Origin: a virus
Taxonomy: Duplodnaviria > Heunggongvirae > Uroviricota > Caudoviricetes
Virus record (IMG/VR): IMGVR_UViG_2734482774_000015
Length of the DNA stretch: 18,985 nucleotides
Reading direction: 5' to 3' (one strand)
Position numbers and translations under genes: made by a program. Under the pieces are notes generated by a model, which had not been told where the DNA came from, did not search any database, and saw nothing but the letters and a program-made list of their open reading frames with translations. Every line of letters begins with the position of its first letter. Positions within the stretch are counted from its first letter, which is position 1. This document shows, piece by piece, positions 574 to 18,985 of this stretch.

Positions 574-753
574 CTACCAGCCGTCGCTCAGTTTCTGACG
601 AAACGCCGGGAGCTGTGTGGCCAGTGCCCGGATGGCTTCAGCCCCCGTTTTCACACGAAGGTCGATGCGGCGACCAAATCGTTGTAAATCCCCGTAAAGG
701 CAGATGCGCGCCATGCCCGGTGACGCCAGAGGGAGTGTGTGCGTCGCTGCCAT
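574..753 (-). pseudogene. I: Tail assembly protein I remnant: 59 codons, then in-frame TAG
   Basis: Minus-strand ATG at 753 gives MAATHTLPLASPGMARICLYGDLQRFGRRIDLRVKTGAEAIRALATQLPAFRQKLSDGW*, which matches the λ gpI N-terminus as recalled. The full protein is about 223 aa. The stop is followed directly by the pre-stf terminator. Confidence 0.8.
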
Positions 754-1427
754 TTGTCGGTGTACCTCTCTCGTTTGCTCAGTTGTTCAGGAATATGGTG
801 CAGCAGCTCGCCGTCGCCGCAGTAAATTGCGGCGTGATTCGGCACTGATGAACCAAAACAGCACAGCAGCACATCGCCCGGCTGTGCCGCTGACAACGGC
901 ACCTGATACAGCCCCGTCGCCTCCAGATTGCGTTTCACCCACGAAGCATGGCCGCCATTGTCACCAAGAAAATCCCCGCCCTGCGACATAGCGATGGAAA
1001 GAGCAGGTATTGATTCGTAGTACGCCAGCATTTCAGAAAGGATCGCATCCAGTTTCCTTATCGGAAAATAGGCCTGGTCATAGTTGCGATCCACCCGAAA
1101 CTGGAACTCGTGATAATCATCATCGAGCTGAATGAAGTATTTACACCCGACCAGTTTTGCCAGGTCGAAACAGGCATTACGGGCGTAAAAAATTGAGCGG
1201 CGGTCACAGAAATTATCGGCTTCGTCAAAACGACTGGCGATATCGGCTTTGGAAAACACCAGCACCTGTTCACCAAATTCAGCCATGTACTGATGCCGTG
1301 TCTTATCTTCATCATCAACAACGATAAAAATTTTCCCGGTATAGCCAGCACGACGCAACGTCCGGTAAGTCAGAACTTTGTCCGGTCGCCCGTGAGTCAG
1401 AATAAAGGCGCAAAAATCATCACGCAT
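651..1427 (-). CDS. Chimeric ORF: N-terminal GT-A-like (DxD) domain fused in frame to the C-terminal NlpC/P60-like part of λ tail protein K; probable deletion fusion
   Basis: The C-terminal ~90 aa (LEATGLYQVPLSAAQPGDVLLCCFGSSVPNHAAIYCGDGELLHH...AFTGIYNDLVAASTFV) look like the gpK C-terminus and overlap the I start as K does in λ. The N-terminal ~170 aa (FILTHGRPDK...GKIFIVVDDEDKT...IQLDDDYHEF) resemble a family-2 glycosyltransferase pattern. The likely start is the ATG at 1427 (MRDDFCAF), with GAGGAGGAGG 4 nt upstream and an ATGCGTGA overlap with the upstream gene's stop. Confidence 0.55.
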   Translation of the reverse strand: MRDDFCAFILTHGRPDKVLTYRTLRRAGYTGKIFIVVDDEDKTRHQYMAEFGEQVLVFSKADIASRFDEADNFCDRRSIFYARNACFDLAKLVGCKYFIQLDDDYHEFQFRVDRNYDQAYFPIRKLDAILSEMLAYYESIPALSIAMSQGGDFLGDNGGHASWVKRNLEATGLYQVPLSAAQPGDVLLCCFGSSVPNHAAIYCGDGELLHHIPEQLSKRERYTDKWQRRTHSLWRHRAWRASAFTGIYNDLVAASTFV

Positions 1428-2211
1428 ATTCCTCCTCCTCACCACCATGCATGATCTCCACCATGCGCTGCGTCATCCGGACAAATCCATTTTCAATAGC
1501 CTGCTGATAATCAATGATCACCAGCGCCGACTCCTCGAAAAAACACTGAATTTCAGCGGGGGCGTGAGCGTAATAGTCCGCAATTCTGCTGAAATTAAAC
1601 ACCGTGTGACGTTCTGCCGCACACAGGAGGAATTTCTCAATATCAGGCTCAAGGGAAGCCAAACGTATCCGGCTGATCAGCTCCTGCGTTTTCGTATCGT
1701 CGTACAGTTCACTGATATCCGGTTTACCGCCCGACGGCTCATAAACAGGCGTATCAATTTTCGTCGTATACGGCTCCTCCTCATTTCCTGTACCGGGCAA
1801 AACATCCGTCAACAGTTCATCAATTTCTGTCGGGATGAAGCCTGTCAGGGAGACATCAAAATCAGCATTGATTAGGTCCGACAGCTCCATCCGCAACAGA
1901 TCTTCATCCCAGCCAGCATTCATCGGCAGGCGATTATCTGCCAGGCGGTACGCCTTTTTCTGCTCATCCGTCAGGCCAGACAGAACAATGACCGGAACAG
2001 AATCCATTTTGAGCATTTCAGCCGCCATAACACGACCGTGACCCGCAATAATTTCGCCCTTTTCGTCAATCAGCACCGGATTAGTCCAGCCGAATTGCTT
2101 AATACTTTCTACCAGTTGTGCCACCTGCTCAGGGCTGTGCGTCCTGGCGTTGTGCGCATACGGTGACAATTCTTGTAATGGGCGATAGACTATCTTTAAT
2201 TTCTCGCTCAT
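1420..2211 (-). CDS. ParB-like nuclease domain protein (263 aa)
   Basis: The N-terminus (YRPLQELSPYAHNARTHSPEQVAQLVESIKQFGWTNPVLIDEKGEIIAGHGRVMAAEML) has the ParB N-terminal domain pattern including a GxGR arginine motif. AAGGA lies 4 nt upstream of the ATG. It sits in the post-lysis cargo position. Confidence 0.7.
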   Translation of the reverse strand: MSEKLKIVYRPLQELSPYAHNARTHSPEQVAQLVESIKQFGWTNPVLIDEKGEIIAGHGRVMAAEMLKMDSVPVIVLSGLTDEQKKAYRLADNRLPMNAGWDEDLLRMELSDLINADFDVSLTGFIPTEIDELLTDVLPGTGNEEEPYTTKIDTPVYEPSGGKPDISELYDDTKTQELISRIRLASLEPDIEKFLLCAAERHTVFNFSRIADYYAHAPAEIQCFFEESALVIIDYQQAIENGFVRMTQRMVEIMHGGEEEEYA

Positions 2212-2348
2212 ACATCCTTGCTTTATGAATAAAACGCACCCCAGCAGCCAGTGCTACTGGGGGCGGAGGTGTTGCTGGTAAAGTTAGGTATTGGATCAAT
2301 GAGTGAGTCAACATAATATTAAACTCACAATTATAAATCAGCCATATA

Positions 2349-3806
2349 TTAGGAGCGCCAAAAAAAACCTGAAAACAAAATAATAACAGGATAAATTTCA
2401 AGGCGACCAAGAATCATAGCTATGCACATTAAATATTTTGCAATGTCATTAAGCACTCCGAATGACGATGCAGTAGCCCCAAAACCTAATCCCATATTAT
2501 TAATACATGCAGCCACTGTTGCAAATGATGTAAGAAAATCATATCCCATACCATTTAACACCAGTATAAAAAACACCGTGAAGAGAGTATAAAGAAAAAA
2601 GAAACTCCATACAGACCTCATTACACGATCTGTAACTATCTTCCCTCCTACATTTACACTCAACAACGCTCTGGGATGAGAAAGCTGATTTATCTCGTGT
2701 TTGCTTTGTTTGAAAAGTATAAGAAATCGAAGTGACTTAATTCCACCACAAGTTGAACCTATACATCCCCCAAAGAAACTTGACAACAGCAAAAACACTA
2801 TCGTGTGCGTGGGCCAGCTTGCATAATCCTGCATAGCTAAACCATTATCAGTGAGCATGGAGCTGGCAAGAAAAAACGAATGAATAAAACTTCCATGCAA
2901 GTCATACATACCTATATGCCAGACCTGGAAAGAGGTAACAATGATCACCCCTAAGGCTATTAACAGAAAGAAACGAAGTTCAATATCTCTGATTAAAGGT
3001 TTTATCGTTTTCCTGCTAATAACAATATACCAAAGAGTGAAGTTGAAAGCCGATAGCAGGGAAAAAGAACCAGCCACCAGCTCAACCAAATAGTTATTAA
3101 AATATCCGATACTCTCGCTATGAGTTGAGAAACCACCAAGCGAAACTGTGGAAATCCCGTGACAAATAGCATCAAACAAAGGCATTCCTGCAAGTCTATA
3201 ACAGACAATACAAGCAATACCTAATAAAGAATAAGTTATCCACAGTGTCCGTGACGTATCGGCCAGGCGGGGAGTGAGTTTGTCATCCTTAAATGGCCCC
3301 GGCATTTCTGACTGATAAAGCTTTGCACCACCAATACCCAATAATGGCAATACAGCAACCGCCAGAACAATAACTCCTAAACCACCTATAAAATTTAACT
3401 GTGACCGATAGTACAAATATGCCCGAGGTAATGAACTAACATCATCAATTACAGTTGCTCCTGTTGTTGTTATTCCAGAAACCCCTTCAAACAGAGCATC
3501 AATGAACGTTAAATTAAGTTCTGAGTCAATCCATAAAGGGAATGCACTAATAACAGAAAACAAAATCCAAAACATTACAATTATAATAAACCCATCACGG
3601 GTACGTAATTGAATGCCAGATTTCTTAGTTGTATACCACGCTCCGCCACCAATGCAAAAAAATATAACGAAAGTTATAAAGAAAACGAACAGGCTTTTTT
3701 CTTTATAAAACAATGCTACAACCATTGGTGGCAACATTGAAAGACTATAGAGCCAAACCAGGAACCCACACATATGAGTAACAACTCTTACATGAGATGT
3801 ATTCAT
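2349..3806 (-). CDS. trkG: TrkH/TrkG-family K+ uptake transporter (485 aa)
   Basis: Multi-pass hydrophobic protein with repeated pore-like GxGG segments, recognised as E. coli TrkG (Rac prophage cargo). The region is visibly AT-rich compared with flanking phage genes. The track ORF starts 18 nt upstream at a TTG; the ATG giving MNTSHVRV is preferred. Confidence 0.88.
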   Translation of the reverse strand: MNTSHVRVVTHMCGFLVWLYSLSMLPPMVVALFYKEKSLFVFFITFVIFFCIGGGAWYTTKKSGIQLRTRDGFIIIVMFWILFSVISAFPLWIDSELNLTFIDALFEGVSGITTTGATVIDDVSSLPRAYLYYRSQLNFIGGLGVIVLAVAVLPLLGIGGAKLYQSEMPGPFKDDKLTPRLADTSRTLWITYSLLGIACIVCYRLAGMPLFDAICHGISTVSLGGFSTHSESIGYFNNYLVELVAGSFSLLSAFNFTLWYIVISRKTIKPLIRDIELRFFLLIALGVIIVTSFQVWHIGMYDLHGSFIHSFFLASSMLTDNGLAMQDYASWPTHTIVFLLLSSFFGGCIGSTCGGIKSLRFLILFKQSKHEINQLSHPRALLSVNVGGKIVTDRVMRSVWSFFFLYTLFTVFFILVLNGMGYDFLTSFATVAACINNMGLGFGATASSFGVLNDIAKYLMCIAMILGRLEIYPVIILFSGFFWRS

Positions 3807-3943
3807 ATCTAAATATTCTTTCAATTATAACCACCTTGCTGCAATATTATGATTATACTGTATAAAATTTAACTCCTCTTAGATCTTACTTCACTGTTCC
3901 TTATGAAACAATCATCAAAATGAATCATATTGTAGTTAAGATT

Positions 3944-4408
3944 TTACTTTAAACACTGTTCGGTTATGTATTGCTGAGCACCTTCAAGTTGGGCCTGCAT
4001 CATTACCAGTCGTTCCCGGAGGGTGAAATAATCCCGTTCAGCGGTGTCTGCCAGTCGGGGGGAGGCTGCATTATCCACGCCGGAGGCGGTGGTGGCTTCA
4101 CGCACTGACTGACAGACTGCTTTGATGTGCAACCGACGACGACCAGCGGCAACATCATCACGCAGAGCATCATTTTCAGCTTTCGCATCAGCTAACTCCT
4201 TCGTGTATTTTGCATCGAGCGCAGCAACATCACGCTGACGCATCTGCATGTCAGTAATTGCCGCGTTCGCCAGCTTCAGTTCTCTGGCATTTTTGTCGCG
4301 CTGGGCTTTGTAGGTAATGGCGTTATCACGGTAATGATTAACAGCCCATGACAGGCAGACGATGATGCAGATAACCAGAGCGGAGATAATCGCGGTTACT
4401 CTGTTCAT
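3944..4408 (-). CDS. rzpD: Rz-type i-spanin (154 aa)
   Basis: N-terminal TM segment ([20 protein letters not shown]) followed by a coiled-coil-like charged region. Its start overlaps the endolysin stop (ATGA). Matches DLP12 RzpD as recalled. Confidence 0.85.
4003..4188 (-). CDS. rzoD: Rz1-type o-spanin lipoprotein, embedded in the +1 frame of Rz (61 aa)
   Basis: Lipobox LVVVGC followed by a proline-rich segment ([15 protein letters not shown]), entirely inside the Rz gene. Confidence 0.85.
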
Positions 4409-4902
4409 TGCTGACCCCACAAACAGATTTCACGCTCAATCTCACGACGAGTCATGAGACCTTTCCATTGCTTACCGCCAGCATATGTCCAGCGACGTAG
4501 CTGATCACATGCGCCTTTGATATCGCCCTGGTTTATTTTGCGAAGAAGCGTCGATGTTCTGAAATTGCCAGCACCCACGTTGTAAACGAATGAGTAAAGA
4601 GCGCCGCGCATTGTTTCCGGTATATCGACTTTGATGTACGGGTTAATTTGTCTGGCGACCGTGGCAAGGTCTTTATTCAGGAGGGCTTTGCATTCTGCTT
4701 TGGTATACGTTTTACCGGGAATGATGTCTTTTCCTGTATGCCCGTGACATACAGTCCATACACCAACAATATCTTTGTATGGTATGTAGCTGACACCTTC
4801 CAGACCATCGTTACCACTTGGGCCAGTAATTAACACTGATGCTATAGCAATTGCTCCGCCACCAATAGCAGCAGCAACGGCTTTTCGTAATGATGGAGGC
4901 AT
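4405..4902 (-). CDS. rrrD: SAR endolysin, T4-lysozyme family (165 aa)
   Basis: N-terminal Gly/Ala-rich weakly hydrophobic signal-anchor-release segment ([20 protein letters not shown]) followed by a lysozyme-like body. Matches DLP12 RrrD / phage 21 R as recalled. Confidence 0.9.
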
Positions 4903-5117
4903 TATTCACCTCTCGCAGCCTTGCGCTTATCTTCTTTAATCTTGAAATAAAGGTTTGTCAGGTACGTCAGCAGGCCAAATACCAGGCTACCCAGCACACC
5001 TATTGCTGCCCACTGTGAGGGCGTGACTTTATCGAGCAGCTGTAAAAACCAGTAACCGGCACTACCTGCTGAGGTGCCATAGGCGACACCCGTTGTTAAC
5101 TTATCCATGGATTTCAT
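4902..5117 (-). CDS. essD: Class II pinholin of the S21 family with dual-start motif (71/68 aa)
   Basis: Starts MKSMDK, i.e. two in-frame starts separated by a Lys codon. Two TM segments and a charged C-terminus ([13 protein letters not shown]). Stop overlaps the endolysin start. Confidence 0.85.
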
Positions 5118-5704
5118 AACCCCACCTCGCAGACAAAGCGGGTGTAAATTGAGGGAATACAACGTATCGCAAAAAAGCAGAAACGTAACAGACTCGGAGT
5201 CAGTGAATAACTCAGGTATTGGGTTATCAGCTAATATCGAGACTCAAAAAATGGAAAAACCTGCTCGACGGCGGGTTTAAGCTGTGTGACGAAGTAACCA
5301 CTCTTAACAGCATAACCAATTTTTTACGTACGTAAACCACTAAATGATATTTGCGAGAATGCTACCGAGTATTGAAAACACCACTACAAATACATAAGCA
5401 AATCTCAACAAATAACCAACAAATAATTTCCAGCGTTATTTTTAGCTGGTTTAAATTGAACCTTCAAATTATAGAGCACTTATAAATAACAGCCATTAAT
5501 ATAAATTGGCTAATAGATTTATTTTTATTCAGCCAAGAGCCATGAATAGGATTCGATAGAAAAAGTTCAGATAAAAATAGAGATCTACTTCACAAATCAA
5601 ATGAGAAACCAAAACTTACATCTTGAAATAATCACATTGATTAGATGAATATTTATCGCGCAGTGACATCATTTTTTAATAATAGTTCAAAAAAAGGGCT
5701 CACG

Positions 5705-6975: not shown

Positions 6976-7359
6976 TTAATTAGAGTTATTAACAACGATA
7001 TCCATCTCTAACCGGATATCTAATGCCATTAACATCCCTTCAATTATGCCCTCAGCCTTCTGTAACCTTTTCCCGATATAACCATCAGAGCAGCAATGCT
7101 TACCTGCCAGTGACATGAATGTCATACCGACTACATAATAATCTACTAATAAATCGTGCAAATCGCTGTTGTTCTTTTTCAGACGGGCCATGCACCCGCA
7201 AATAATCATCGCGTCATCGTCACAACATTGCGGGCGAGATTTTACTTTTGAAGTAATTAATCCCTTAAAACCGGCGGCAATGGACGACCAGGTCACATCT
7301 TCATGATTATTAGCCGCCCACGCTCCCCAACGCTCAAGAACCATCTGAATATCACGCAT
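6976..7359 (-). CDS. quuD: Late-gene antiterminator Q (127 aa)
   Basis: [22 protein letters not shown]... with Cys-rich putative zinc-binding region ([16 protein letters not shown]). Lies between the nin region and the lysis genes. The track ORF starts 5 codons upstream at a TTG. Confidence 0.85.
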
Positions 7360-7444
7360 CAACTTACTCCACAAAAATCAGACCAGAACGCCAATTACAA
7401 GCAAAAATCAACGAAACAGTATTAGTTGATTGTTATCTCTGACT

Positions 7445-8394: not shown

Positions 8395-8849
8395 TACGCC
8401 TCCTGCTTGTCACGGAGCTGCTGGAACTCGCAGCTCTGCGGAATAGTCAGATGGCAGCCAATATTCACCGCCCAGGCTTCAACCTTACACAGGAAGACAT
8501 ACATCTCTCCGGTATCAAGATCGGAGGTATGGCGTAACGACTGGATAGTGGTGATATCACCGGTTACGACATCAACCAGGTCTTTGGTTTCATAACCGAG
8601 ATATGTGTGTTTGAGAGCATCTTTTACCCAAGCTGGAGTGGCGAACGTTTTACCCCTGCTGATGAGGTATTCACTGATTTCGCTGTACCACATGTGGCTG
8701 AGTGCATTCTGGGAAAGACTGCGTTTCTCACGCCACGGTTTAAGCACCATGCGAAAGCATTTGCCCTCCTCCAGATAAGGCTGGATCTGCCGACCGATAG
8801 CGGTGAAGTTACCGCGATGTAATTTTATGCCGTCTTGTGGGAGGTTCAC
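8394..8849 (-). CDS. ybcN: NinB-position protein YbcN (151 aa), GTG start
   Basis: [57 protein letters not shown]..., recognised as DLP12 YbcN. Confidence 0.85.
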
Positions 8850-9096
8850 GCTTCACCTCCGCAGAGGCCAAACGCTGGATGCAAAAAATCGCAGGTGCAT
8901 TTCTGCATCTGTGAATGGAGAAGATAGGTTGGTTTGTATGTGCGCATAACCCCAAATCTTCATACGTTACGGTATCAAGGTAATAATCACTATTTACCTT
9001 TAGCCATTCAGTAATAAGCCTTCTCTGGCGGTTTAATGAATCACCAGACATCTGACCTGGTGATGAAAATCGCATATATGCTATGGCTTTTTTCAT
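8809..9096 (-). pseudogene. ybcK: Serine recombinase (YbcK-like) N-terminal remnant: about 49 homologous codons, then unrelated sequence
   Basis: [49 protein letters not shown] carries the resolvase catalytic Ser/Arg motif. The remaining ~46 codons are not recombinase-like and overlap the ybcN start. A full serine recombinase would be several hundred aa. Confidence 0.7.
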
Positions 9097-9351
9097 GGTG
9101 ACACCTGCTAAAGTATGCTTTTATAAACCTTAGTGGTGAGATATGATTTTTGTTTAATTTTTATTTAAAAAGACAATTAAGGTCACATTATCTTGAATAT
9201 ACAACAATAATCGTATTGCAATTTTCTTACACCATAATCCTGAAAGCACAAAAGAATGAATAAAAACTAAAGACATTAACAAAAAGCATAAAACGAGGCC
9301 CATATAAATATACGAACCTCCATATTTTAGTCGTTTAAAAACAAATTATTT

Positions 9352-9684
9352 TTAATGTGGTGTGCTTCGTGACAATAAATTAATAACCAACACACCGGCA
9401 CAAATCAACATCATGCCTATAATGGCTGGCAGGTCCAACCGTTGGCCGAAAAATCCCCATGATAGTAAGCTAATCAGGACAATACCGACTCCTGACCAGA
9501 TAGCATAAGCAATCCCTGTAGGAATATAAGCCAGCGTCTGAGCTAATAACCAGAATGATGCACAATAACAAATAATTGTACCAACAGATGGCCATAACCG
9601 TGTAAAACCTTCTGAAAACTTCATTAAGGTTGTACCAATGACCTCTGCAAGTATTGCACCACCAAGATAAATATAAGGATTCAT
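9352..9684 (-). CDS. emrE: Small multidrug resistance efflux transporter EmrE (110 aa)
   Basis: MNPYIYLGGAILAEVIGTTLMKFSEGFTRLWPSVGTI... with four TM helices and the conserved membrane-embedded Glu. The track ORF is extended 18 codons upstream. AT-rich flanks. Confidence 0.95.
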   Translation of the reverse strand: MNPYIYLGGAILAEVIGTTLMKFSEGFTRLWPSVGTIICYCASFWLLAQTLAYIPTGIAYAIWSGVGIVLISLLSWGFFGQRLDLPAIIGMMLICAGVLVINLLSRSTPH

Positions 9685-10752: not shown

Positions 10753-11678
10753 AAATCCACCCCATAAATCCAGTCAGTGTTTGTCAGGTCGAGTTTTGAT
10801 TTTCCGGCTGTCACGCCAGCCTGTTGCTTGTTACGGTTGATTTCGAGTTGGGTCCACTTGTCGCGGAGTTTGGCCGGACATAGCACGTTACCGGACCAGA
10901 AGTTGTCCTGGCATGCCCAGCGGAACAGCACGCACATGTCGCGGTGGTTACGTCCGTCACGTTCACGCATCAGGCGGATATCGTTAGCCCACCCTGCAAA
11001 ATTCGGTTTTCTGGCTGATGGCGCGATGGTCTTCACCATGTCAAACATCCACTCTGCGGCGGTCAGGTCTTCTGCTGTCCCCCACTTGCTGCCGCTCTGA
11101 ATTGCAGCATCCGGTTTCACCACAGGAAGATCGTTTTCTGGCTGGTCAGAGGATTCGTCAGAATTCTCGGACGAAAAAGGTTTTATATTGTCTTTTGTTA
11201 GTTTGTCTTTTGTGTTTACCTGATTCGGGTAAACGCCTTTACCTGATTTGGGTAAACTTTTCTTACCTGATTCAGGTAAATTTACCTCTTTCAGGTAAAC
11301 TTTATTTTTCTTACCTGATTCGGGTAATGTTGACCATTCACTGACCACATTATTAATGCCGGTATTCCGCCCGCTCTGAATAAGAATCCCACGCTTTACC
11401 AGAACACTTTTTGCAGCAGAACACTTGTGCGGCAATATCCCGGTCAATTCGGACAGTTGCTCGTTGCTCACCCAATCCAGTTTTTTATTAAAGCCATATG
11501 TTTTGCGCATGACAGCTAGGAAGACCAGAAGCTGGTGCTGTGTTAATCCGGCCAGCATCACAGCTTCCAGCAACTCATTTGCAATGCGCGTATAACCATC
11601 ATCGAGATCTGCCACGCGCGGCTCCTTTTGTGCCGCATCCGGCACTGGAAAATTGAATATCTCAGCAGTGTTTGCCAT
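10749..11678 (-). CDS. O: Replication initiator O-like protein (about 309 aa); origin iterons lie inside the gene
   Basis: N-terminal domain ADLDDGYTRIANELLEAVMLAGLTQHQLLVFLAVMRKTYGFNKKLD... resembles the λ O DNA-binding domain. The repeated LPESGKK peptides reflect the iterons. ATG at 11678 is preceded by GGGAGG. The track ORF starts 30 codons upstream at 11768, which remains an alternative start. Confidence 0.85.
   Translation of the reverse strand: MANTAEIFNFPVPDAAQKEPRVADLDDGYTRIANELLEAVMLAGLTQHQLLVFLAVMRKTYGFNKKLDWVSNEQLSELTGILPHKCSAAKSVLVKRGILIQSGRNTGINNVVSEWSTLPESGKKNKVYLKEVNLPESGKKSLPKSGKGVYPNQVNTKDKLTKDNIKPFSSENSDESSDQPENDLPVVKPDAAIQSGSKWGTAEDLTAAEWMFDMVKTIAPSARKPNFAGWANDIRLMRERDGRNHRDMCVLFRWACQDNFWSGNVLCPAKLRDKWTQLEINRNKQQAGVTAGKSKLDLTNTDWIYGVDL
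11215..11328. repeat. Replication origin: five about 19-bp iterons (consensus TTACCTGATTCGGGTAAAC, each an inverted repeat TTACC..GGTAA) next to an AT-rich tract (about 11175..11214)
   Basis: Direct repeats at about 11215-11234, 11238-11257, 11263-11280, 11281-11300 and 11311-11328, inside the O-like coding sequence, with the AT-rich stretch AAAAAGGTTTTATATTGTCTTTTGTTAGTTTGTCTTTTGTGTTT alongside, as in oriλ. Confidence 0.8.
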
Positions 11679-11764
11679 AATTCCTCCCGCAATGAGTGTG
11701 TTACGATTTGCACCTGAAAGTCGGTTCTGTTCCAGCAGACCGGCTTTCGCCATTTCTGAACCTG

Positions 11765-12304
11765 TCATATCGCCCCCAGCATGGTAGTAACCATCGCCAT
11801 CAATGGACCAGCCAGATCTGGGTCCACACGAAACATCGACACAATACCTTCACTAATTTCCTTCAGTTTCTGGTGGCGTGGTGCGTTGAGAATGACAGCC
11901 TGTTTTGCCTCACTGAGTTCCTTTTCCATTTCAGCCAACCTAGCCATGAAGCTATCCTGCTCAACCAGGTAACCGCGATATTCCAGCGGTAGTACCGCCA
12001 GAATTGCCGGGGTCAGTTCACGCACGTTATTTCGGTATTTTTCAGAATCGAATTTGTTATCGAGGAAGCGGAACAGCTTCTGGCGTGCACGGCTGACATC
12101 ATCAGGGAAATCGATGGTGCCGCCGCCCTGCTCCCGATACTCATTCACAATGAGTGTGGCAACGACATCCTGATTATCTTCAGCCGACCAAGCGCGGACG
12201 GCATCACGGATTTTTTCGTGGCCTGGCACCTGTTTTGTTTGAGAACGATTTATCACCGCAGTCGGGCTAAATCCGCTAGTCTGTTGGTATGTAAGTGGTT
12301 GCAT
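11765..12304 (-). CDS. YdaT-like protein in the cII position (179 aa)
   Basis: ATG preceded by AAAGGAG. Located directly downstream of the cro-like gene. Weak recalled resemblance to the Rac YdaT family (IRDAVRAW..., ARQKLFRFLDNK...). Function not established here. Confidence 0.5.
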   Translation of the reverse strand: MQPLTYQQTSGFSPTAVINRSQTKQVPGHEKIRDAVRAWSAEDNQDVVATLIVNEYREQGGGTIDFPDDVSRARQKLFRFLDNKFDSEKYRNNVRELTPAILAVLPLEYRGYLVEQDSFMARLAEMEKELSEAKQAVILNAPRHQKLKEISEGIVSMFRVDPDLAGPLMAMVTTMLGAI

Positions 12305-12373
12305 AATTGACTCCTTTAGTTTGAATTGACTGTTAAGTTGATTGCTTATTGTTAAAGAGCGTGAAATGGAAAT

Positions 12374-12604
12374 TTAAGCTGCGTTCTTTTCGGTGTGTGG
12401 AAACAACTTCGGAAGATCCGGGCGAATCTGGTATGCCTTCACTACTCCACCAGTAGCCGTAACAATGCTGCCGACATGTTCAGGGGATACCTTTGCTTTG
12501 TTGTGAAGCCACTTATAGACGGCCTGCTGTGAAACTTCGCAAGCAGCGCCCAGTTTCTTTTGTGAACCAACGATATTGATCGCTGTTTTGATAGCTGGGT
12601 TCAT
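12374..12604 (-). CDS. cro: Cro-like HTH regulator, YdaS-like (76 aa)
   Basis: Divergent from cI across a 104-bp operator region. Putative HTH (QKKLGAACEVSQQAVYKWLHN). GGAGG lies 5 nt upstream of the ATG. Confidence 0.75.
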   Translation of the reverse strand: MNPAIKTAINIVGSQKKLGAACEVSQQAVYKWLHNKAKVSPEHVGSIVTATGGVVKAYQIRPDLPKLFPHTEKNAA

Positions 12605-12708
12605 AACAACCTCCGTGGTTAATTTGAATCAAGATTAAAACTATGGTTGTTTTTAGTCAACAACCATTTTCGTTTGATGGAATAAAACCTTGGTTGTACA
12701 TTTGGACT
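12605..12708. promoter_or_regulatory. oR-like divergent control region: pR for cro (minus strand, -35 TTGACT, -10 TAATCT) and a likely leaderless pRM-type start for cI
   Basis: Minus strand reads TTGTTGACTAAAAACAACCATAGTTTTAATCT, then GGAGG and the cro ATG. Dyad elements ATGGTTGT...ACAACCAT and TTAATTTGAATCAAGATTAA are present. The cI ATG at 12709 has no recognisable Shine-Dalgarno, as for λ cI. Confidence 0.65.
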
Positions 12709-13398
12709 ATGAAAACAACACTCTCAGAAAGACTTAAAGAAGCCAGATTAGCGCGAGGCCTTACACAAAAGGCGCTTGGGGATTTGGTCGGGGTTAGCCA
12801 AGCTGCTATTCAGAAAATCGAAACAGGGAAAGCTAATCAAACAACTAAAATCGTGGAGATCGCGAACGCTTTGGGTGTGCGCGCAGAATGGTTATCTTCT
12901 GGCGTTGGAAATATGTCAGACAGTACAGTGCAACCAATACAATCAACTGTCAGCCATTCCAAATACTTCAAGATTGACGTTCTTGATATAGAAGTCAGTG
13001 CTGGGCCGGGAGTCATCAACCGTGAGTTTGTAGAAGTTCTACGCTCGGTTGAGTACTCGTTTGACGATGCTCGTCACATGTTCGATGGTAGGAAGGCGGA
13101 AAATATCCGCATCATTAACGTGCGTGGTGACAGCATGTCAGGAACGATCGAACCAGGTGATCTGCTGTTCGTTGATATCACAGTTAAATCTTTCGACGGT
13201 GATGGTATCTATGCGTTTCTGTACGACGACACAGCCCATGTAAAGCGCCTGCAAATGATGAAGGATAAGCTGCTGGTCATCTCTGATAACAAAAGCTACT
13301 CACCGTGGGACCCGATCGAGAAAGACGAGATGAACCGGGTGTTCATCTTCGGTAAGGTTATTGGGAGCATGCCGCAGACATATAGGAAGCATGGTTAA
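12709..13398 (+). CDS. cI: CI-type prophage repressor with LexA-like S24 autopeptidase domain (229 aa)
   Basis: N-terminal HTH (LTQKALGDLVGVSQAAIQKIETGK), candidate Ala-Gly cleavage site (EVSAGPG), catalytic Ser in RGDSMSGTIEPGDLLFVD and Lys in HVKRL. The upstream ATG at 12643 would place coding sequence over the operators and is rejected. Confidence 0.9.
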   Translation: MKTTLSERLKEARLARGLTQKALGDLVGVSQAAIQKIETGKANQTTKIVEIANALGVRAEWLSSGVGNMSDSTVQPIQSTVSHSKYFKIDVLDIEVSAGPGVINREFVEVLRSVEYSFDDARHMFDGRKAENIRIINVRGDSMSGTIEPGDLLFVDITVKSFDGDGIYAFLYDDTAHVKRLQMMKDKLLVISDNKSYSPWDPIEKDEMNRVFIFGKVIGSMPQTYRKHG

Positions 13399-13520
13399 AG
13401 TGAGGCTAAAAAACAGTTACAGCAATAGGCCTGTTGTTTTTCTTTAAACACGCAGTGTTAAACCGCTCTTTGAGATGCGGAGTAATGAGATGGAAGACTT
13501 GAATCACATAAGGGTTAGTG

Positions 13521-14270
13521 ATGGAGTGCGTAGCGAGCAGCAATAGTGCAATACCTAATGTCGTTGAAGTAATACGTCGCATCAATGAAGGTTCCACTCA
13601 GCCATTTCTTTGCAAATGTGATGATGGGCAGTTGTATGTTTTGAAGTCAAAACCATCAATGCCCCCGAAAAATCTCTTAGCTGAGTTCATTTCGGCGTGT
13701 TTGGCTAATGATATCGGCCTTCCTTTACCTGACTTTAAAATCGTATTTGTGCCAGAGGAACTTATAGAGTACTCACCTGATCTGCAGCAACAAATTTGTA
13801 CAGGATATGCCTTTGCTTCATTGTTCATTGACGGTGCAATAGCGTTAACGTTTACGCAGTCAAGAAACGAAACGATCATCCCAGTCGAACAGCAAAAATT
13901 AATCTATGTTTTTGATAAATGGATATTAAATGCAGACAGAACGCTTACTGACAAAGGTGGAAACGTTAACATCATTTATGACATCAGTAACGATAAGTAT
14001 TATCTGATTGACCATAATCTCTCATTTGATCAGAATGCTGGACCTGAAGATTTTTCTGTGCACGTGTACGGCCCTGGTAACCGCAAATGGCAATATGATT
14101 TAGTGGATCGCGTAGAGTACCGCCAGAGGGTCGTTAACAGTTTACACAAGCTTCCTGCTATCCTTGACGAAATTCCAGAAGAGTGGATAGTAGATGAGGA
14201 GTTTTTACCTTTTGTCTGCACTACGCTAGACAAAGGTGATTGTGATGAATTTTGGAGCGCAATAGAATGA
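13521..14270 (+). CDS. Uncharacterised protein with HipA-like / kinase-like catalytic motifs (249 aa); first gene of the cassette occupying the rexA slot
   Basis: Intact ORF 120 bp downstream of cI on the same strand. Motifs FDKWILNADRTLTDKGGN and IIYDIS resemble the HipA_C catalytic and Mg-binding Asp loops. AAGGG lies 7 nt upstream of the ATG; an alternative GTG start lies at 13518. The family assignment is inference from motifs only. Confidence 0.65.
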   Translation: MECVASSNSAIPNVVEVIRRINEGSTQPFLCKCDDGQLYVLKSKPSMPPKNLLAEFISACLANDIGLPLPDFKIVFVPEELIEYSPDLQQQICTGYAFASLFIDGAIALTFTQSRNETIIPVEQQKLIYVFDKWILNADRTLTDKGGNVNIIYDISNDKYYLIDHNLSFDQNAGPEDFSVHVYGPGNRKWQYDLVDRVEYRQRVVNSLHKLPAILDEIPEEWIVDEEFLPFVCTTLDKGDCDEFWSAIE

Positions 14271-15094
14271 CAACTCCATGCCTATATAGCATCGTTCGCT
14301 ATGCGCCTTATGCGGAGACTGAAGAGTTCGCAAACATAGGCGTACTTCTGTGCGCGCCAAAAGAAAATTACTTTGATTTCCAGCTCACAAAGCGAAATGA
14401 CTCTCGTGTAAAGAATTTTTTCCATGATGATTGTATTTTCCCTGTAGCAAAAGACTCAATACAAAGAGAACTACAGTTCGCAAAAATGCATGCGACCCAG
14501 ATTGTTGGACATCAACAACTTGCACAATTCTTCAGATATTTTACAAACAAAAAAGAATCAATTTTTCAGTTCAGTTCTACGAGAGTGATTCTCAGCGAAA
14601 ACCCAAAAGAAGAGCTGGCCCGCATTTACAATAAATATGTAAACCACTCTGACTACACAAAAGAGCGCCGTGAAGATGTTCTAGCCAGAGAGCTAAAACG
14701 AAGTATCGATAGAATAGATGGATTGAAGAACGTCTTCAAACAAGCAACCATTGATGGGTATTTCGCAAAGTTCTCAATGCCATTGGTCGCCAAGAAGCAT
14801 GACAGGATCCAATGTGCCATCAAACCTCTGGCATTCACTCAAGCTGAACCAGGAAAAATGATGGAGCATAGTGATACTTGGGTGATGAGAATAACTCGAG
14901 CAGCAGAAGAAAACCTGCTTTCACTTGATGACATTTTATTCACAATTGAAACTCCTGAATCACCAAACTCAGGCCAAAGCAAAGTTATTGACATCATAAA
15001 GAGAACTATGGATGCTAAGAAAATAAATCATATACCTGCATCCAACCACAAAGAAACTATTGATTTTGCAAAAAAAATACTTCCCCAAGTTTAA
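14267..15094 (+). CDS. Uncharacterised protein with DUF3037-like N-terminus (275 aa); second gene of the cassette, translationally coupled to the first
   Basis: The ATG overlaps the upstream stop (ATGA); GGAG lies 9 nt upstream. The N-terminus CLYSIVRYAPYAETEEFANIGVLLCAP matches my recollection of the DUF3037 signature. Followed by a strong terminator. Confidence 0.65.
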   Translation: MTTPCLYSIVRYAPYAETEEFANIGVLLCAPKENYFDFQLTKRNDSRVKNFFHDDCIFPVAKDSIQRELQFAKMHATQIVGHQQLAQFFRYFTNKKESIFQFSSTRVILSENPKEELARIYNKYVNHSDYTKERREDVLARELKRSIDRIDGLKNVFKQATIDGYFAKFSMPLVAKKHDRIQCAIKPLAFTQAEPGKMMEHSDTWVMRITRAAEENLLSLDDILFTIETPESPNSGQSKVIDIIKRTMDAKKINHIPASNHKETIDFAKKILPQV

Positions 15095-15128
15095 AATTTA
15101 TTTTTGTATGTGATATTCCTTATTAATA

Positions 15129-15156
15129 ACCCGGCCACCGTGCCGGGTTTTCTTTT
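15129..15156 (+). terminator. Rho-independent terminator ending the cI-downstream cassette
   Basis: ACCCGGC-CACCGT-GCCGGGT stem-loop followed by TTTTCTTTT on the + strand. Confidence 0.75.
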
Positions 15157-15288
15157 GCCTCCCCTCATCACACAAACCGCTCAAAAAACCACCATAACCT
15201 CGCTTCAGTTATCGCTATGCGATTCAAGTCACAAAATAAATCCATCCTAAATACAACCAGTTATATCTAAAACAACCAATAAAACAAC

Positions 15289-15326
15289 TTTTGTTGTTGA
15301 CGGTAAAACAACTATAGTTTTAAATA
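15289..15326 (+). promoter_or_regulatory. oL/pL-like promoter-operator, a near copy of the pR core
   Basis: TTGTTGACGGTAAAACAACTATAGTTTTAAATA here versus TTGTTGACTAAAAACAACCATAGTTTTAATCT at pR. Upstream operator-like repeats ACAACCAG, ACAACCAAT and the palindrome CAACTTTTGTTG lie at about 15252..15296. Confidence 0.6.
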
Positions 15327-15723
15327 GGTTCATCGCAACAACACAACGATACGGCAACCACCTGATTCACCGTTGCGATGACCGCTTAGATCCGCAGTTT
15401 GAATTTCAGCAGGCTTCGGGGAGTGCGAGGGGTGAAACGGACGCGTGAACGTCGGTGTGACCAGCTGAAATCAACTCAACATTTCATACCTTAGTCGCTT
15501 CAACGAGGCGGCTTAGTTATGACAACCGGCGGCCATCCACCGCCTGAATACGCGCAGAAGTCTCTATATGTTCAGCAGCCCAGCTTCACAGCGATGCCAG
15601 AGTCTGTAGTGTCAGATGATGACCGTACTCAAACATCGGGTTGAGTATTATCTTACTGTTTCTTTACATAAACATTGCTGATACCGTTTAGCTGAAACGA
15701 CATACATTGCAAGGAGTTTATAA

Positions 15724-16005
15724 ATGAGTATCAATGAGTTAGAGTCTGAGCAAAAAGATTGGGCGTTATCAATGTTGTGCAGATCCGGTGTCTTGTCTCC
15801 ATGCAGACATCACGAAGGTGTTTATGTAGATGAAGGTATAGATATAGAGTCGGCATACAAATATTCCATGAAGGTTTATAAGTCTAATGAAGACAAATCC
15901 CCATTCTGCAATGTGCGAGAAATGACTGATACCGTGCAAAATTATTATCACGAGTACGGTGGAAACGATACTTGCCCTCTCTGTACAAAACATATAGATG
16001 ATTAA
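15724..16005 (+). CDS. ea8.5: Ea8.5-like protein (93 aa)
   Basis: Size and position (upstream of orf-55/xis) as in λ. Cys/His pattern (CRHHEG ... CPLCTKH) is consistent with a metal-binding fold. Preceded by AAGGAG. Confidence 0.8.
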   Translation: MSINELESEQKDWALSMLCRSGVLSPCRHHEGVYVDEGIDIESAYKYSMKVYKSNEDKSPFCNVREMTDTVQNYYHEYGGNDTCPLCTKHIDD

Positions 16006-16093
16006 ACCCAATATTACATAACAATCCTCGCACTCGCGGGGATTTATTTTATCTGAACTCGCTACGGCGGGTTTTGTTTTATGGAGATGATAA

Positions 16094-16261
16094 ATGCACT
16101 TCCGAGTCACAGGAGAATGGAATGGAGAGCCATTCAACAGAGTTATCGAAGCGGAGAACATCAACGACTGCTACGACCACTGGATGATATGGGCGCAGAT
16201 AGCACATGCAGACATAACCAATATTCGAATTGAAGAACTGAAAGAACACCAAGCCGCCTGA
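16094..16261 (+). CDS. Small λ-like hypothetical protein (orf-55, 55 aa)
   Basis: Below the track cutoff. Translation: MHFRVTGEWNGEPFNRVIEAENINDCYDHWMIWAQIAHADITNIRIEELKEHQAA*. Same position as λ orf-55. Confidence 0.65.
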   Translation: MHFRVTGEWNGEPFNRVIEAENINDCYDHWMIWAQIAHADITNIRIEELKEHQAA

Positions 16262-16278
16262 TGGCGGTTTTTTCTTGC
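16253..16278 (+). terminator. Terminator-like hairpin between orf-55 and xis
   Basis: GCCGCC-TGAT-GGCGG followed by TTTTTTCTTG. Confidence 0.45.
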
Positions 16279-16300
16279 GTGTAATTGCGGAGACTTTGCG

Positions 16301-16519
16301 ATGTACTTGACACTTCAGGAGTGGAACGCTCGCCAGCGACGCCCAAGAAGCCTTGAAACAGTTCGTCGATGGGTGCGCGAATGCAGGATATTCCCTCCTC
16401 CGGTTAAGGATGGAAGAGAATATCTGTTCCACGAATCAGCGGTAAAGGTTGACTTAAATCGACCAGTAACAGGTAGCCTTTTGAAGAGGATCAGAAATGG
16501 GAAGAAGGCGAAGTCATGA
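16301..16519 (+). CDS. xis: Excisionase Xis (72 aa)
   Basis: MYLTLQEWNARQRRPRSLETVRRWVRECRIFPPPVKDGREYLFHESAVKVDLNRPVTGSLLKRIRNGKKAKS, recognised as λ Xis. The 3' end overlaps int by 23 nt, as in λ. Confidence 0.95.
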   Translation: MYLTLQEWNARQRRPRSLETVRRWVRECRIFPPPVKDGREYLFHESAVKVDLNRPVTGSLLKRIRNGKKAKS

Positions 16520-17567
16520 GCGCCGGGATTTACCCCCTAACCTTTATATAAGAAACAATGGATATTACTGCTACAGGGACCCAAGGACGGGTAAAGAGTT
16601 TGGATTAGGCAGAGACAGGCGAATCGCAATCACTGAAGCCATACAGGCCAACATTGAGTTATTTTCAGGACACAAACACAAGCCTCTGACAGCGAGAATC
16701 AACAGTGATAATTCCGTTACGTTACATTCATGGCTTGATCGCTACGAAAAAATCCTGGCCAGCAGAGGAATCAAGCAGAAGACACTCATAAATTACATGA
16801 GCAAAATTAAAGCAATAAGGAGGGGGCTGCCTGATGCTCCACTTGAAGACATCACCACAAAAGAAATTGCGGCAATGCTCAATGGATACATAGACGAGGG
16901 CAAGGCGGCGTCAGCCAACTTAATCAGATCAACACTGAGCGATGCATTCCGAGAGGCAATAGCTGAAGGCCATATAACAACAAACCCTGTCGCTGCCACT
17001 CGCGCAGCAAAATCAGAGGTAAGGAGATCAAGACTTACGGCTGACGAATACCTGAAAATTTATCAAGCAGCAGAATCATCACCATGTTGGCTCAGACTTG
17101 CAATGGAACTGGCTGTTGTTACCGGGCAACGAGTTGGTGATTTATGCGAAATGAAGTGGTCTGATATCGTAGATGGATATCTTTATGTCGAGCAAAGCAA
17201 AACAGGCGTAAAAATTGCCATCCCAACAACATTGCATGTTGATGCTCTCGGGATATCAATGAAGGAAACACTTGATAAATGCAAAGAGATTCTTGGCGGA
17301 GAAACCATAATTGCATCTACTCGTCGTGAACCGCTTTCATCCGGCACAGTATCAAGGTATTTTATGCGCGCACGAAAAGCATCAGGTCTTTCCTTCGAAG
17401 GGGATCCGCCTACCTTTCACGAGTTGCGCAGTTTGTCTGCAAGACTCTATGAGAAGCAGATAAGCGATAAGTTTGCTCAACATCTTCTCGGGCATAAGTC
17501 GGACACCATGGCATCACAGTATCGTGATGACAGAGGCAGGGAGTGGGACAAAATTGAAATCAAATAA
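16497..17567 (+). CDS. int: Tyrosine integrase Int (356 aa)
   Basis: Full-length, recognised as λ Int with only a few substitutions (MGRRRSHERRDLPPNLYIRNNGYYCYRDPRTGKEF...HELRSLSARLYEKQ...HLLGHKSDTMASQYRDDRGREWDKIEIK). Confidence 0.97.
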   Translation: MGRRRSHERRDLPPNLYIRNNGYYCYRDPRTGKEFGLGRDRRIAITEAIQANIELFSGHKHKPLTARINSDNSVTLHSWLDRYEKILASRGIKQKTLINYMSKIKAIRRGLPDAPLEDITTKEIAAMLNGYIDEGKAASANLIRSTLSDAFREAIAEGHITTNPVAATRAAKSEVRRSRLTADEYLKIYQAAESSPCWLRLAMELAVVTGQRVGDLCEMKWSDIVDGYLYVEQSKTGVKIAIPTTLHVDALGISMKETLDKCKEILGGETIIASTRREPLSSGTVSRYFMRARKASGLSFEGDPPTFHELRSLSARLYEKQISDKFAQHLLGHKSDTMASQYRDDRGREWDKIEIK

Positions 17568-17655
17568 TGATTTTATTTTGACTGATAGTGACCTGTTCGT
17601 TGCAACAAATTGATAAGCAATGCTTTTTTATAATGCCAACTTAGTATAAAAAAGC
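17568..17655. other. attL: attL: λ P' arm with arm-type Int sites, plus the 15-bp common core at 17641..17655
   Basis: TTAGTATAAAAAAGC is the reverse complement of the λ core GCTTTTTTATACTAA. The phage-side arm TAATGCCAACTTAGTATAAAAAAGC...TGATAGTGACCTG matches the λ P' arm. The sequence after the core (AGGCTTCA...) is host. Confidence 0.85.
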
Positions 17656-17701
17656 AGGCTTCAACGGATTCATTTTTCTATTTCATAGCCCGGAGCAACC
17701 T

Positions 17702-18985
17702 GTGAATACATTTTCAGTTTCCCGTCTGGCGCTGGCATTGGCTTTTGGCGTGACGCTGACCGCCTGTAGCTCAACCCCGCCCGATCAACGTCCTTCTGAT
17801 CAAACCGCGCCTGGTACCTCTTCTCGCCCGATTCTGTCGGCAAAAGAAGCGCAGAATTTCGATGCTCAACACTATTTTGCATCCCTGACACCAGGTGCTG
17901 CAGCGTGGAATCCTTCCCCGATTACCCTGCCTGCGCAACCTGACTTTGTTGTCGGCCCGGCGGGCACTCAAGGTGTAACGCATACCACGATTCAGGCGGC
18001 GGTAGATGCGGCAATTATCAAGCGTACCAACAAGCGCCAGTATATTGCCGTGATGCCTGGTGAGTATCAGGGAACGGTATATGTCCCTGCCGCTCCGGGT
18101 GGAATTACTCTGTACGGTACAGGTGAAAAACCGATTGATGTGAAGATTGGGCTTTCCCTTGATGGTGGCATGAGCCCTGCCGACTGGCGTCACGACGTCA
18201 ACCCGCGCGGCAAATATATGCCAGGTAAACCAGCGTGGTATATGTACGATAGCTGCCAGAGCAAACGCAGCGACAGTATCGGTGTTCTCTGCTCTGCGGT
18301 CTTCTGGTCACAAAACAATGGCCTGCAACTGCAAAATCTGACCATCGAAAACACGCTGGGCGATAGCGTAGATGCAGGTAACCATCCGGCGGTGGCACTG
18401 CGTACTGATGGTGACCAGGTACAGATTAACAACGTTAACATTCTCGGTCGTCAGAACACCTTCTTTGTCACCAACAGCGGTGTGCAGAACCGTCTGGAAA
18501 CGAATCGTCAGCCGCGTACGCTGGTGACCAACAGCTACATTGAAGGGGATGTGGATATCGTTTCTGGTCGCGGCGCAGTGGTGTTCGATAACACCGAATT
18601 CCGCGTGGTGAACTCACGTACTCAGCAAGAAGCGTATGTGTTTGCACCGGCTACGCTGTCCAACATTTACTACGGTTTCCTCGCCGTAAACAGCCGTTTC
18701 AATGCTTTCGGTGATGGTGTGGCGCAACTGGGCCGCTCGCTGGATGTTGATGCCAATACCAACGGTCAGGTGGTGATCCGTGATAGCGCCATCAACGAAG
18801 GTTTTAACACGGCTAAACCGTGGGCCGATGCGGTGATCTCTAATCGTCCGTTTGCGGGTAATACCGGCAGCGTAGATGATAACGACGAAATACAGCGCAA
18901 TCTGAATGACACTAACTACAACCGCATGTGGGAATACAATAACCGCGGCGTGGGCAGCAAAGTGGTTGCAGAGGCGAAGAAGTAA
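17702..18985 (+). CDS. ybhC: Host outer-membrane lipoprotein YbhC, pectinesterase-like acyl-CoA thioesterase family (427 aa), GTG start
   Basis: Lipoprotein signal with lipobox LTAC and pectinesterase-like repeats. Recognised as E. coli YbhC, the gene flanking attλ on the gal side. Confidence 0.9.
   Translation: MNTFSVSRLALALAFGVTLTACSSTPPDQRPSDQTAPGTSSRPILSAKEAQNFDAQHYFASLTPGAAAWNPSPITLPAQPDFVVGPAGTQGVTHTTIQAAVDAAIIKRTNKRQYIAVMPGEYQGTVYVPAAPGGITLYGTGEKPIDVKIGLSLDGGMSPADWRHDVNPRGKYMPGKPAWYMYDSCQSKRSDSIGVLCSAVFWSQNNGLQLQNLTIENTLGDSVDAGNHPAVALRTDGDQVQINNVNILGRQNTFFVTNSGVQNRLETNRQPRTLVTNSYIEGDVDIVSGRGAVVFDNTEFRVVNSRTQQEAYVFAPATLSNIYYGFLAVNSRFNAFGDGVAQLGRSLDVDANTNGQVVIRDSAINEGFNTAKPWADAVISNRPFAGNTGSVDDNDEIQRNLNDTNYNRMWEYNNRGVGSKVVAEAKK

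Follow-up and report, generated by a model that had tools for sequence, protein, structure and literature searches.

A Defective Lambdoid Prophage in Which the pL Leader of an N-less Phage Family Has Very Probably Been Joined by Deletion to a Lambda-Type ea8.5 Module

Organization of the Prophage

The stretch of DNA analyzed here (the window, 18,985 nucleotides) contains a lambdoid prophage, with its genes in order from the late region to the attachment site (Table 1). The lambda-type int and xis genes adjoin the host gene ybhC, and the element therefore lies at the lambda attB site; positions 15590-18985 are 100% identical to E. coli chromosomes with the order ea8.5-orf55-xis-int-ybhC. The prophage is a lambdoid of the Rac/DLP12 type, with a QuuD-type Q and both the YdaS-family Cro and the YdaT-family protein at the cII position that belong to N-less lambdoids of this type. 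Downstream of the repressor gene, the HipA_2 kinase and the DUF3037 protein form a pair that corresponds to a validated defense system, HipAD (DS-6; PMC13092281).

The closest phage to this region is Escherichia phage PhiR5_1 (PV340545), which shares with the window the cro and cI genes, the HipAD cassette, its terminator (100% identity), the OL/pL region, and the leader that follows; between positions 12300 and 15586 the two differ at only two bases, both inside the hipA/hipD genes. The same N-less early-left arrangement of pL, leader, and kil is found in PhiR34_1, PhiR70_1, Perceval, 4A7, 1W, 3W, D2, and a prophage of E. coli UK_Dog_Liverpool. The latter is an intact-looking sister prophage located at the same ybhC site.

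TABLE 1. Genes and other features of the window (positions in the 18,985-nucleotide stretch).
Feature	Position	Strand	Remarks
trkG	2349-3824
Rz	3944-4420	minus
Lysozyme	4405-4902	minus
Holin	4902-5162	minus
Q	6976-7374	minus	Phage_antitermQ
rusA, ninE, ninB, emrE-like gene, ren, P, O	between Q and the YdaT-family gene	minus
ybcK recombinase fragment	8809-9096		further decay
YdaT-family protein gene, cII position	11765-12304	minus	Pfam YdaT_toxin, 9.5e-30
cro, YdaS family	12374-12604	minus	Pfam YdaS_toxin, 4e-17
cI-type repressor gene, intact	12643-13398	plus	HTH and S24 peptidase (Pfam); identical to PhiR5_1
HipA_2 kinase	13518-14270	plus
DUF3037 protein	14252-15094	plus
Intrinsic terminator, end of the cI-hipA-hipD (immunity and defense cassette) transcript	15128-15157	plus	8-bp GC-rich stem (15128-15149), then T-run to about 15157
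OL operators and pL promoter	15250-15325	plus	AAAACAAC/GTTGTT operator repeats; direct repeats D1, D3
Putative pL -35, TTGACG	15297-15302	plus
Putative alternative pL -10, TATAGT	15313-15318	plus
Putative pL -10, TTAAAT	15320-15325	plus
Perfect inverted repeat, 10 bp, TCATCGCAAC / GTTGCGATGA	15330-15339 / 15372-15381	plus
Leader: initial ~256 of the ~272 untranslated nt between pL and kil in the N-less phage family	15332-15586	plus	identical to PhiR5_1
31-codon arginine-rich ORF, TTG start	15399-15494	plus	in frame with annotated kil extension; judged non-coding
41-codon ORF	15519-15644	plus	22 in-frame leader codons fused out of frame to the lambda-type spacer
Deletion junction	15584-15586		3-nt microhomology CTT
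Lambda-type ea22-ea8.5 intergenic spacer	15587-15723	plus	no mismatch to lambda and UTME-7
ea8.5 Shine-Dalgarno, AAGGAG	15711-15716	plus
ea8.5, now first gene 3' of pL	15724-16005	plus	Pfam Lambda_ea8_5, E 1e-48
Tandem terminator-like hairpins 3' of ea8.5	16023-16044, 16055-16074	plus	consensus scan only
orf55	16094-16261	plus
Terminator-like hairpin, end of orf55, upstream of xis	16251-16270	plus	consensus scan only
xis	16301-16519	plus
int	16497-17567	plus
ybhC, host gene	17702-18985	plus

The Interval Between the Cassette Terminator and ea8.5

About 570 bp separate the terminator of the immunity and defense cassette from the ATG of ea8.5. The initial annotation had described this interval as lacking an N-like ORF as well as exo, bet, gam, kil, and cIII, a description that is borne out by the ORF list, the PHROG comparisons, and tblastn. 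The longest ORF in 15157-15723 has only 48 amino acids and lies upstream of pL. None of the ten small ORFs of the interval (each of at least 20 amino acids) matched a PHROG at E ≤ 10, and a tblastn search with lambda N gave nothing above noise (best E 0.64). Similarly, no boxA was found in 15157-15723 with up to three mismatches allowed, nor any boxB-like hairpin (5-bp stem, G-start, A-rich pentaloop). Between the terminator and ea8.5, then, neither an N homologue nor a nut site emerged from the searches of the left operon, and kil, gam, bet, and exo were not found either. Relative to the cI operon, pL is placed and oriented as in the lambda pL-nutL-N operon; unlike the early-left region of lambda, the window has no N, no nutL, and no cIII, and its immunity proteins are of the YdaS/YdaT type.

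The absence of a boxA-like element noted in the initial annotation holds for this left operon but not for the whole prophage. A perfect 12-nt rrn-type boxA, GCTCTTTAACAA, is present on the minus strand at 12360-12349, in the 70-nt spacer between cro and the YdaT-family gene, and is the only match with fewer than three mismatches in the window (2 × 19 kb). This spacer occupies the position of nutR in lambda. No boxB-like hairpin follows the boxA, and the motif was rejected as a family-wide feature, as it is absent from heteroimmune relatives; this isolated boxA is confined to the immunity type of the window.

The promoter assigned to pL, with its two possible -10 hexamers and a putative transcript start at about 15326-15333, was recognized from its sequence and from its relationship to the other early promoter. 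A 30-nt core, GTTGTTGAC(N2-3)AAAACAAC(N)ATAGTTTTAA, at 15293-15322 matches the pR/OR region (12645-12664, minus strand), and further repeats of the AAAACAAC type lie upstream of it. That pL and pR/OR have this core in common supports control of pL by cI. A generic promoter scan of the window did not score pL, because its -10 deviates from the consensus. Conservation with heteroimmune phages begins at 15332/15333, close to the putative transcript start. The distance from this start to the ATG of ea8.5 is about 392-398 nt, which agrees with the 400-nt leader proposed earlier.

These features support the view that a cI-controlled pL is now aimed directly at ea8.5. The promoter activity, repression, and termination discussed here are predictions. 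As long as the intact cI is made, it would be expected to repress both pL and pR, closing pL through an operator that overlaps the -35 and is of the same type as that of pR. A derepressed pL would produce a composite leader of about 395 nt followed by ea8.5, and no intrinsic terminator is predicted in 15158-16022, including the lambda-type spacer. Beyond ea8.5 the situation is different. It had been suggested that pL drives the entire ea8.5-orf55-xis-int series, which is plausible for ea8.5; it is doubtful that pL transcripts reach xis and int, because three hairpins intervene and no antitermination device has been identified. Unless the leader confers resistance to termination, most pL transcripts would probably stop at the hairpins that follow ea8.5 and orf55.

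A Probable Deletion Junction Within the Leader

Alignment with lambda and related prophages, as the initial annotation had advised, located the breakpoint of a probable deletion at 15584-15586. Identity with PhiR5_1 stops at 15586, and identity with lambda (lambda 29795-29797) starts at 15584. From there to 16600 the window matches lambda 28779-29795 at 99.2% identity; this lambda-type part starts about 50 nt past the ea22 stop and runs through ea8.5, orf55, xis, and int. In PhiR5_1 and its relatives, the leader runs on into kil, gam, bet, and exo, and in PhiR5_1 these are followed by orf60a, orf61, and traR-like and ea22 genes, whereas the window switches to the lambda-type ea8.5 module. The UK_Dog_Liverpool prophage, which is 99.6% identical to the window over 11067-15586 and 99.2% identical over 16024-18985, carries 4,003 bp between these two segments, comprising the genes from kil to one of the TraR family and a single ORF on the reverse strand; the window has 437 bp there.

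Very probably, the locus consists of the OL/pL region and leader of an N-less lambdoid prophage that were joined by a deletion to the ea22-ea8.5 spacer. An illegitimate deletion at the CTT microhomology would have taken out the final ~16 nt of the leader and the ribosome-binding site of kil, together with kil, gam, bet, exo, and the genes that follow, to a point about 50 nt past ea22. We infer both the exact parent and the length deleted, roughly 4-5.4 kb, since no database record contains the kil module contiguous to the lambda-type ea22-ea8.5 module. The simplest reading is that of a private deletion in a prophage that once carried the series from kil to ea22 and ea8.5, but a history of several steps, in which an exchange of modules preceded the deletion, could also have led to this arrangement.

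It is very unlikely that the junction is instead an ordinary mosaic boundary created by phage recombination. Lambdoid genomes are indeed mosaics, and the ea8.5 module is itself bordered by a mosaic boundary at 16024; here, however, a conserved leader is interrupted 17 nt short of kil, with the loss of the kil Shine-Dalgarno sequence, and the homology at the junction amounts to merely 3 nt. Moreover, the junction is absent from all collections searched: 50,697 phage records, 5426 complete E. coli genomes, IMG/VR, and JGI metagenome contigs.

Absence of N and the Defect of the Prophage

Both N and the recombination module are missing from the early-left operon, as had been noted, but the two absences have different origins. 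PhiR5_1, PhiR70_1, Perceval, and the UK_Dog_Liverpool prophage all contain cI, a variable cassette, an unannotated gap, and kil, with no N-like gene; the gap, of about 0.4-0.5 kb, corresponds to the cassette terminator, OL/pL, and the leader. In these relatives kil (phrog_294) is the first gene of the pL operon, the gene that in the window has been deleted while the leader was left in place, and cIII is also absent from the intact relatives. Comparison with these genomes shows the absence of N to be a family trait and not damage. Of the genes earlier listed as missing, kil, gam, bet, and exo are the only ones that this prophage has lost, along with the genes that lay past them.

According to the initial annotation, the lack of N should impair expression of Q and hence of the late genes, as would fit a cryptic prophage. 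That the element is defective is confirmed, and no N, nut site, kil, gam, bet, or exo is present between pL and ea8.5, as loss of N along with the recombination module would require. This sequence of events is nevertheless extremely unlikely: in the relatives without N, kil lies directly 3' of the leader, and the breakpoint, 17 nt before kil, is still inside the leader, which leaves no space for a lost N gene upstream of it. In addition, the relatives deposited as complete phages and the sister prophage are equally N-less; the viability of the relatives is judged from their GenBank records (complete genomes, laboratory hosts).

The defect is accounted for by the loss of morphogenesis genes, which the PhiR5_1-type relatives have. 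Rz is directly followed by trkG, a ParB_N/ynaK-like ORF, and a chimeric TAGT plus NlpC/P60 ORF, and no terminase or head gene was found in this region. The element is thus defective mainly because the head genes and most of the tail genes have been lost, to which the deletion from kil to ea22 is added. Such patchwork decay by deletions is also seen in DLP12, in Rac, and in the UTME-7 remnant at ybhC. Defective E. coli lambdoids share with the window prophage the right arm from ninB/ybcN through ninE-ybcO-rusA-ylcG-quuD-porin-essD-rrrD-rzpD, and trkG and ynaK, which here follow Rz, are Rac-type genes. UTME-7, a closely related remnant, has the same layout from the right arm to the tail remnant, with a different internal deletion that has removed its whole immunity region. 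In contrast to these other defective lambdoids, the window copy has a complete immunity region with its HipAD cassette, and a private deletion of its own.

The Leader Is Not Translated and Kil Has 68 Residues

The leader is widespread. It occurs in 2230 of the 5426 complete E. coli genomes searched (about 41%) and is carried by at least 16 deposited phages, and PGAP places no annotation over it in 39 of the 40 E. coli matches listed. In some phage records, part of it is included in kil: the 22-codon leader stretch of the 41-codon ORF is annotated as the N-terminus of Kil. The existence of this 41-codon ORF, reported in the initial annotation, is confirmed, with coordinates 15519-15644, which lie 10 nt to the left of the 15529-15654 given there.

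A protein encoded in the leader could take three forms, namely an arginine-rich, N-like 31-amino-acid protein (ARM), an N-terminal extension of Kil, or the 41-amino-acid fusion. The peptide MNFSRLRGVRGVKRTRERRCDQLKS... resembles arginine-rich motifs, most relatives have no stop codon in this frame before kil, and the Kil of Perceval is annotated with 139 amino acids. A comparison by codon position of 62 distinct sequences from IMG/VR and phage records leaves hardly any room for such a protein. In kil (68 codons), 19 of the 20 variable sites are at third positions, and diversity at first and second positions is 0.0002. On the other hand, the 21 variable sites in 15399-15518 and the six in 15519-15602 are spread across all codon positions. 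Of the 62 variants, 44 have CAG in place of the TAG stop codon at 15492, a stop/sense split of 18 to 44. A TCAAC pentamer occurs in two or three copies, which in four variants results in a 5-nt indel that shifts the frame, and single-base indels in other leader variants shift it as well. The 31-amino-acid ORF has no match in PHROGs or Pfam and no Shine-Dalgarno sequence before its TTG; an exact look-up of the 41-amino-acid product retrieved no record. Given these indels, the polymorphic stop codon, and substitutions without codon-position bias, the coding reading of both ORFs was rejected. Its substitution pattern and indels show that the leader does not encode a protein, and the 41-codon ORF is not a gene but an artefact of the fusion made by the deletion.

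The start of kil itself leads to the same conclusion. In intact relatives, a strong Shine-Dalgarno sequence, AGGAG, precedes by 6 nt an internal ATG (MVHQHYG...), located 17 nt past the breakpoint. When Kil homologues from 13 other enterobacterial genomes are aligned, similarity starts only at residue ~22-33 of Kil as annotated in PhiR5_1, and in ten of these genomes the upstream ORF listings show that Kil begins at or near the internal Met, with MVHQHYGTQ... or close variants. The PGAP call in the sister prophage is likewise of 68 amino acids, with nothing annotated upstream. Kil is thus a protein of 68 amino acids, and the annotations of 96 and 139 amino acids are over-extended. Codon-position bias, indels, and stop polymorphism together indicate that the whole ~272 nt from pL to kil is untranslated.

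Structure and Conservation of the Leader

Nucleotide diversity (pi) in the leader is 0.023, compared with 0.050 at the third codon positions of kil; as this is only a reduction by about half, constraint on the leader is weak. The inverted repeat reported in the initial annotation at about 15331-15381 is real, but it has a length of 10 bp instead of 9 and starts at 15330. A stem-loop formed by the repeat would stand at the very 5' end of the pL RNA. Both frequent polymorphisms within this stem (C/U opposite G and A/G opposite U) keep the pairing; no compensatory double change was seen in it. As a whole, the leader is predicted to fold no more stably than its shuffled versions (z = -0.88). No compensatory change was found among 65 predicted pairs in 47 sequences, which at a mean identity of 96% are too similar to decide; all five of the polymorphisms that are common in predicted stems are compatible with wobble pairing, and those that break pairs are rare. 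A search of 12200-16100 against Rfam at gathering and permissive thresholds returned no relevant match, and neither blastn-short nor nhmmer detected a second copy of the leader elsewhere in the window, including the pR operon. In other genera (14 loci), the regions upstream of Kil homologues proved unrelated, and no diverged form of the leader was recovered.

Possible Functions of the Leader

Terminator-like hairpins occur inside the early operons of this N-less family, in the left operon at positions 9534, 11409, and 12496 of PhiR5_1 (L001) and in the right operon at window positions 9320-9295. Some way of transcribing past them is therefore expected. In phage HK022, put RNA suppresses termination through the zinc-binding domain of the RNA polymerase beta' subunit. 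A cis-acting RNA of this kind, an analogue of putL that replaces N, could still allow pL transcripts to reach xis and int in the window, where the first 256 nt of the leader survive. The leader family resembles the HK022 putL and putR system in that both belong to N-less lambdoids and have a conserved RNA beginning at the start of the pL transcript (PMC9378689), a conservation that extends, as for putL, even to heteroimmune phages. The stem-loop predicted at the extreme 5' end and the wobble-compatible stem polymorphisms also fit this role, and the operation of put in other N-less lambdoids has been the subject of published speculation (PMC12315714).

The comparison with put itself is less favorable. 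A covariance model (R1), built from 21 putL and putR sequences that were retrieved from IMG/VR with the put core pattern, assigned 80 bits to HK022 putL and 88.7 bits to putR, but no more than 9.6 bits (E~3, for a site in gene O) to anything in the window, PhiR5_1, Perceval, or PhiR70_1. The leader is also about four times longer than put and much less constrained, and it lacks a paralogous copy in the pR operon. Taken with the fold score and the absence of compensatory pairs, these differences make a putL analogue rather improbable.

A second role, somewhat less improbable though still unlikely, is that the leader attenuates or insulates the toxic kil gene through Rho/NusG-dependent termination or translational sequestration, by analogy with kilR of Rac. 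This N-less prophage of the YdaS/YdaT type also has its kil gene after a long untranslated leader, NusG/Rho-dependent termination silences kilR (PMC5793797), and the small RNA KilS derives from the kilR 5' UTR (PMC8175672). An insulator would keep a leaky pL from expressing kil in lysogens; what remains of it in the window would serve no function. Over its first 78 nt the leader is rich in C and poor in G, but with a C/G ratio of 1.7, at about the 90th percentile of the window, this rut-like composition is unremarkable and decides little either way; a hairpin is predicted at about 15490-15515, over the region of the upstream ATG. The argument is one of analogy, and the two leaders are unrelated in sequence: no similarity to the upstream region of Rac kilS/kilR was found, and the Rac leader has an intrinsic terminator at its end, in contrast to the leader of the window, which is predicted to have none.

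More generally, the leader may be a new cis-acting RNA that controls elongation, either as a processive antiterminator or as a Rho-dependent gate for kil, which is conceivable without being likely. A specific elongation-control role of any kind remains a tentative proposal, whose overall probability we place between low and, at best, doubtful.

Implications

Taken by itself, the locus is of minor importance: an ordinary private deletion scar in a prophage of a common and known type, which has kept its repressor and its HipAD system. For annotation, the comparison provides a correction, since the kil gene of PhiR5_1-type phages encodes 68 amino acids and not 96 or 139. The wider interest lies in the family, which is very common and has neither N, nor a left nut site, nor, by the covariance model, a put element of the HK022 type; for its delayed-early expression, the literature that we found offers only the speculation about put (PMC12315714). 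If the leader does act as an RNA, the remnant in the window would still hold most of it. The conserved leader and, in the immunity type of the window, the isolated boxA after cro are candidates for the elements on which delayed-early expression in this family may depend.

Remnant genes and the HipAD cassette

The coordinates of the features discussed here are collected in the table. Downstream of cI lies a cassette whose HipA_2/DUF3037 pair corresponds to an intact HipAD / DS-6 anti-phage system, and the activity of this system against phages has been validated by experiment (PMC13092281). Only two single-base differences separate the cassette from its counterpart in phage PhiR5_1.

The late region has decayed. 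The window has no terminase or head genes and has lost most tail genes; within positions 651-4420, a Rac-type trkG comes straight after Rz, and the ParB_N/ynaK-like and chimeric ORFs come next. The ybcK-like serine recombinase is represented by a fragment, whereas in PhiR70_1 this gene is complete and is accompanied by ybcL and ybcM. The related remnant in Escherichia coli strain UTME-7 differs in sequence from the window over positions 1-566.

Features of the prophage and of related records
Feature	Coordinates	Strand	Basis
Region from Rz on to chimeric ORF	651-4420	minus	gene content
Chimeric ORF: TET-associated glycosyltransferase domain and NlpC/P60 C-terminus	651-1448	minus	
ParB_N/ynaK-like ORF	1420-2211	minus	
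Serine recombinase fragment, ybcK-like, 95 aa	8809-9096	minus	
Terminator-like hairpin, 11-bp stem and T-run	9295-9320	minus	sequence prediction
YdaT-type regulator	11765-12304		
rrn-type boxA, 12 nt, GCTCTTTAACAA	12349-12360	minus	motif scan of window
HipA_2 kinase and DUF3037 protein cassette	13518-15094	plus	Pfam
TCAAC repeat of leader	15471-15480 (leader alignment columns 142-151)		
lambda-type xis-int	16301-17567		
Kil, PhiR5_1, 96 aa	L001 9220-9510		annotated
Kil, Perceval, 139 aa	L003 4057-4476		annotated
Kil, sister prophage, 68 aa	L198 4537-4743		PGAP
KilS, sRNA in kilR 5' UTR, K-12 Rac	L197 2406-2503		annotated

Leader and integration module

In the leader, the TCAAC pentamer occurs in two or three tandem copies among relatives. 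The annotated lengths of Kil vary, and the evidence favors the 68-aa form, which starts with MVHQHYG, over those of 96 or 139 aa. A search for sequence similarity between the window leader and K-12 Rac KilS, which terminates at an intrinsic terminator, found none.

The window also shows a hybrid combination, in which a lambda-type xis-int accompanies a YdaT-type regulator in place of the lambda-CII type found in lambda. In lambda, pI transcription of int requires CII.

Elements of the pR operon

The boxA is a perfect match located 14 nt past the cro stop codon, inside the 70-nt cro-ydaT spacer, and is the single match in the window with fewer than three mismatches. No boxB-like hairpin was found beside it. 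PhiR5_1 carries this boxA as well; PhiR70_1 and Perceval, two heteroimmune relatives in which the spacer measures approximately 25 nt, lack it.

The strong terminator-like hairpin lies further along the operon, upstream of Q, in the interval that separates the emrE-like gene from the nin region. In a family that lacks N, transcription would need to read through this hairpin in order to reach Q.
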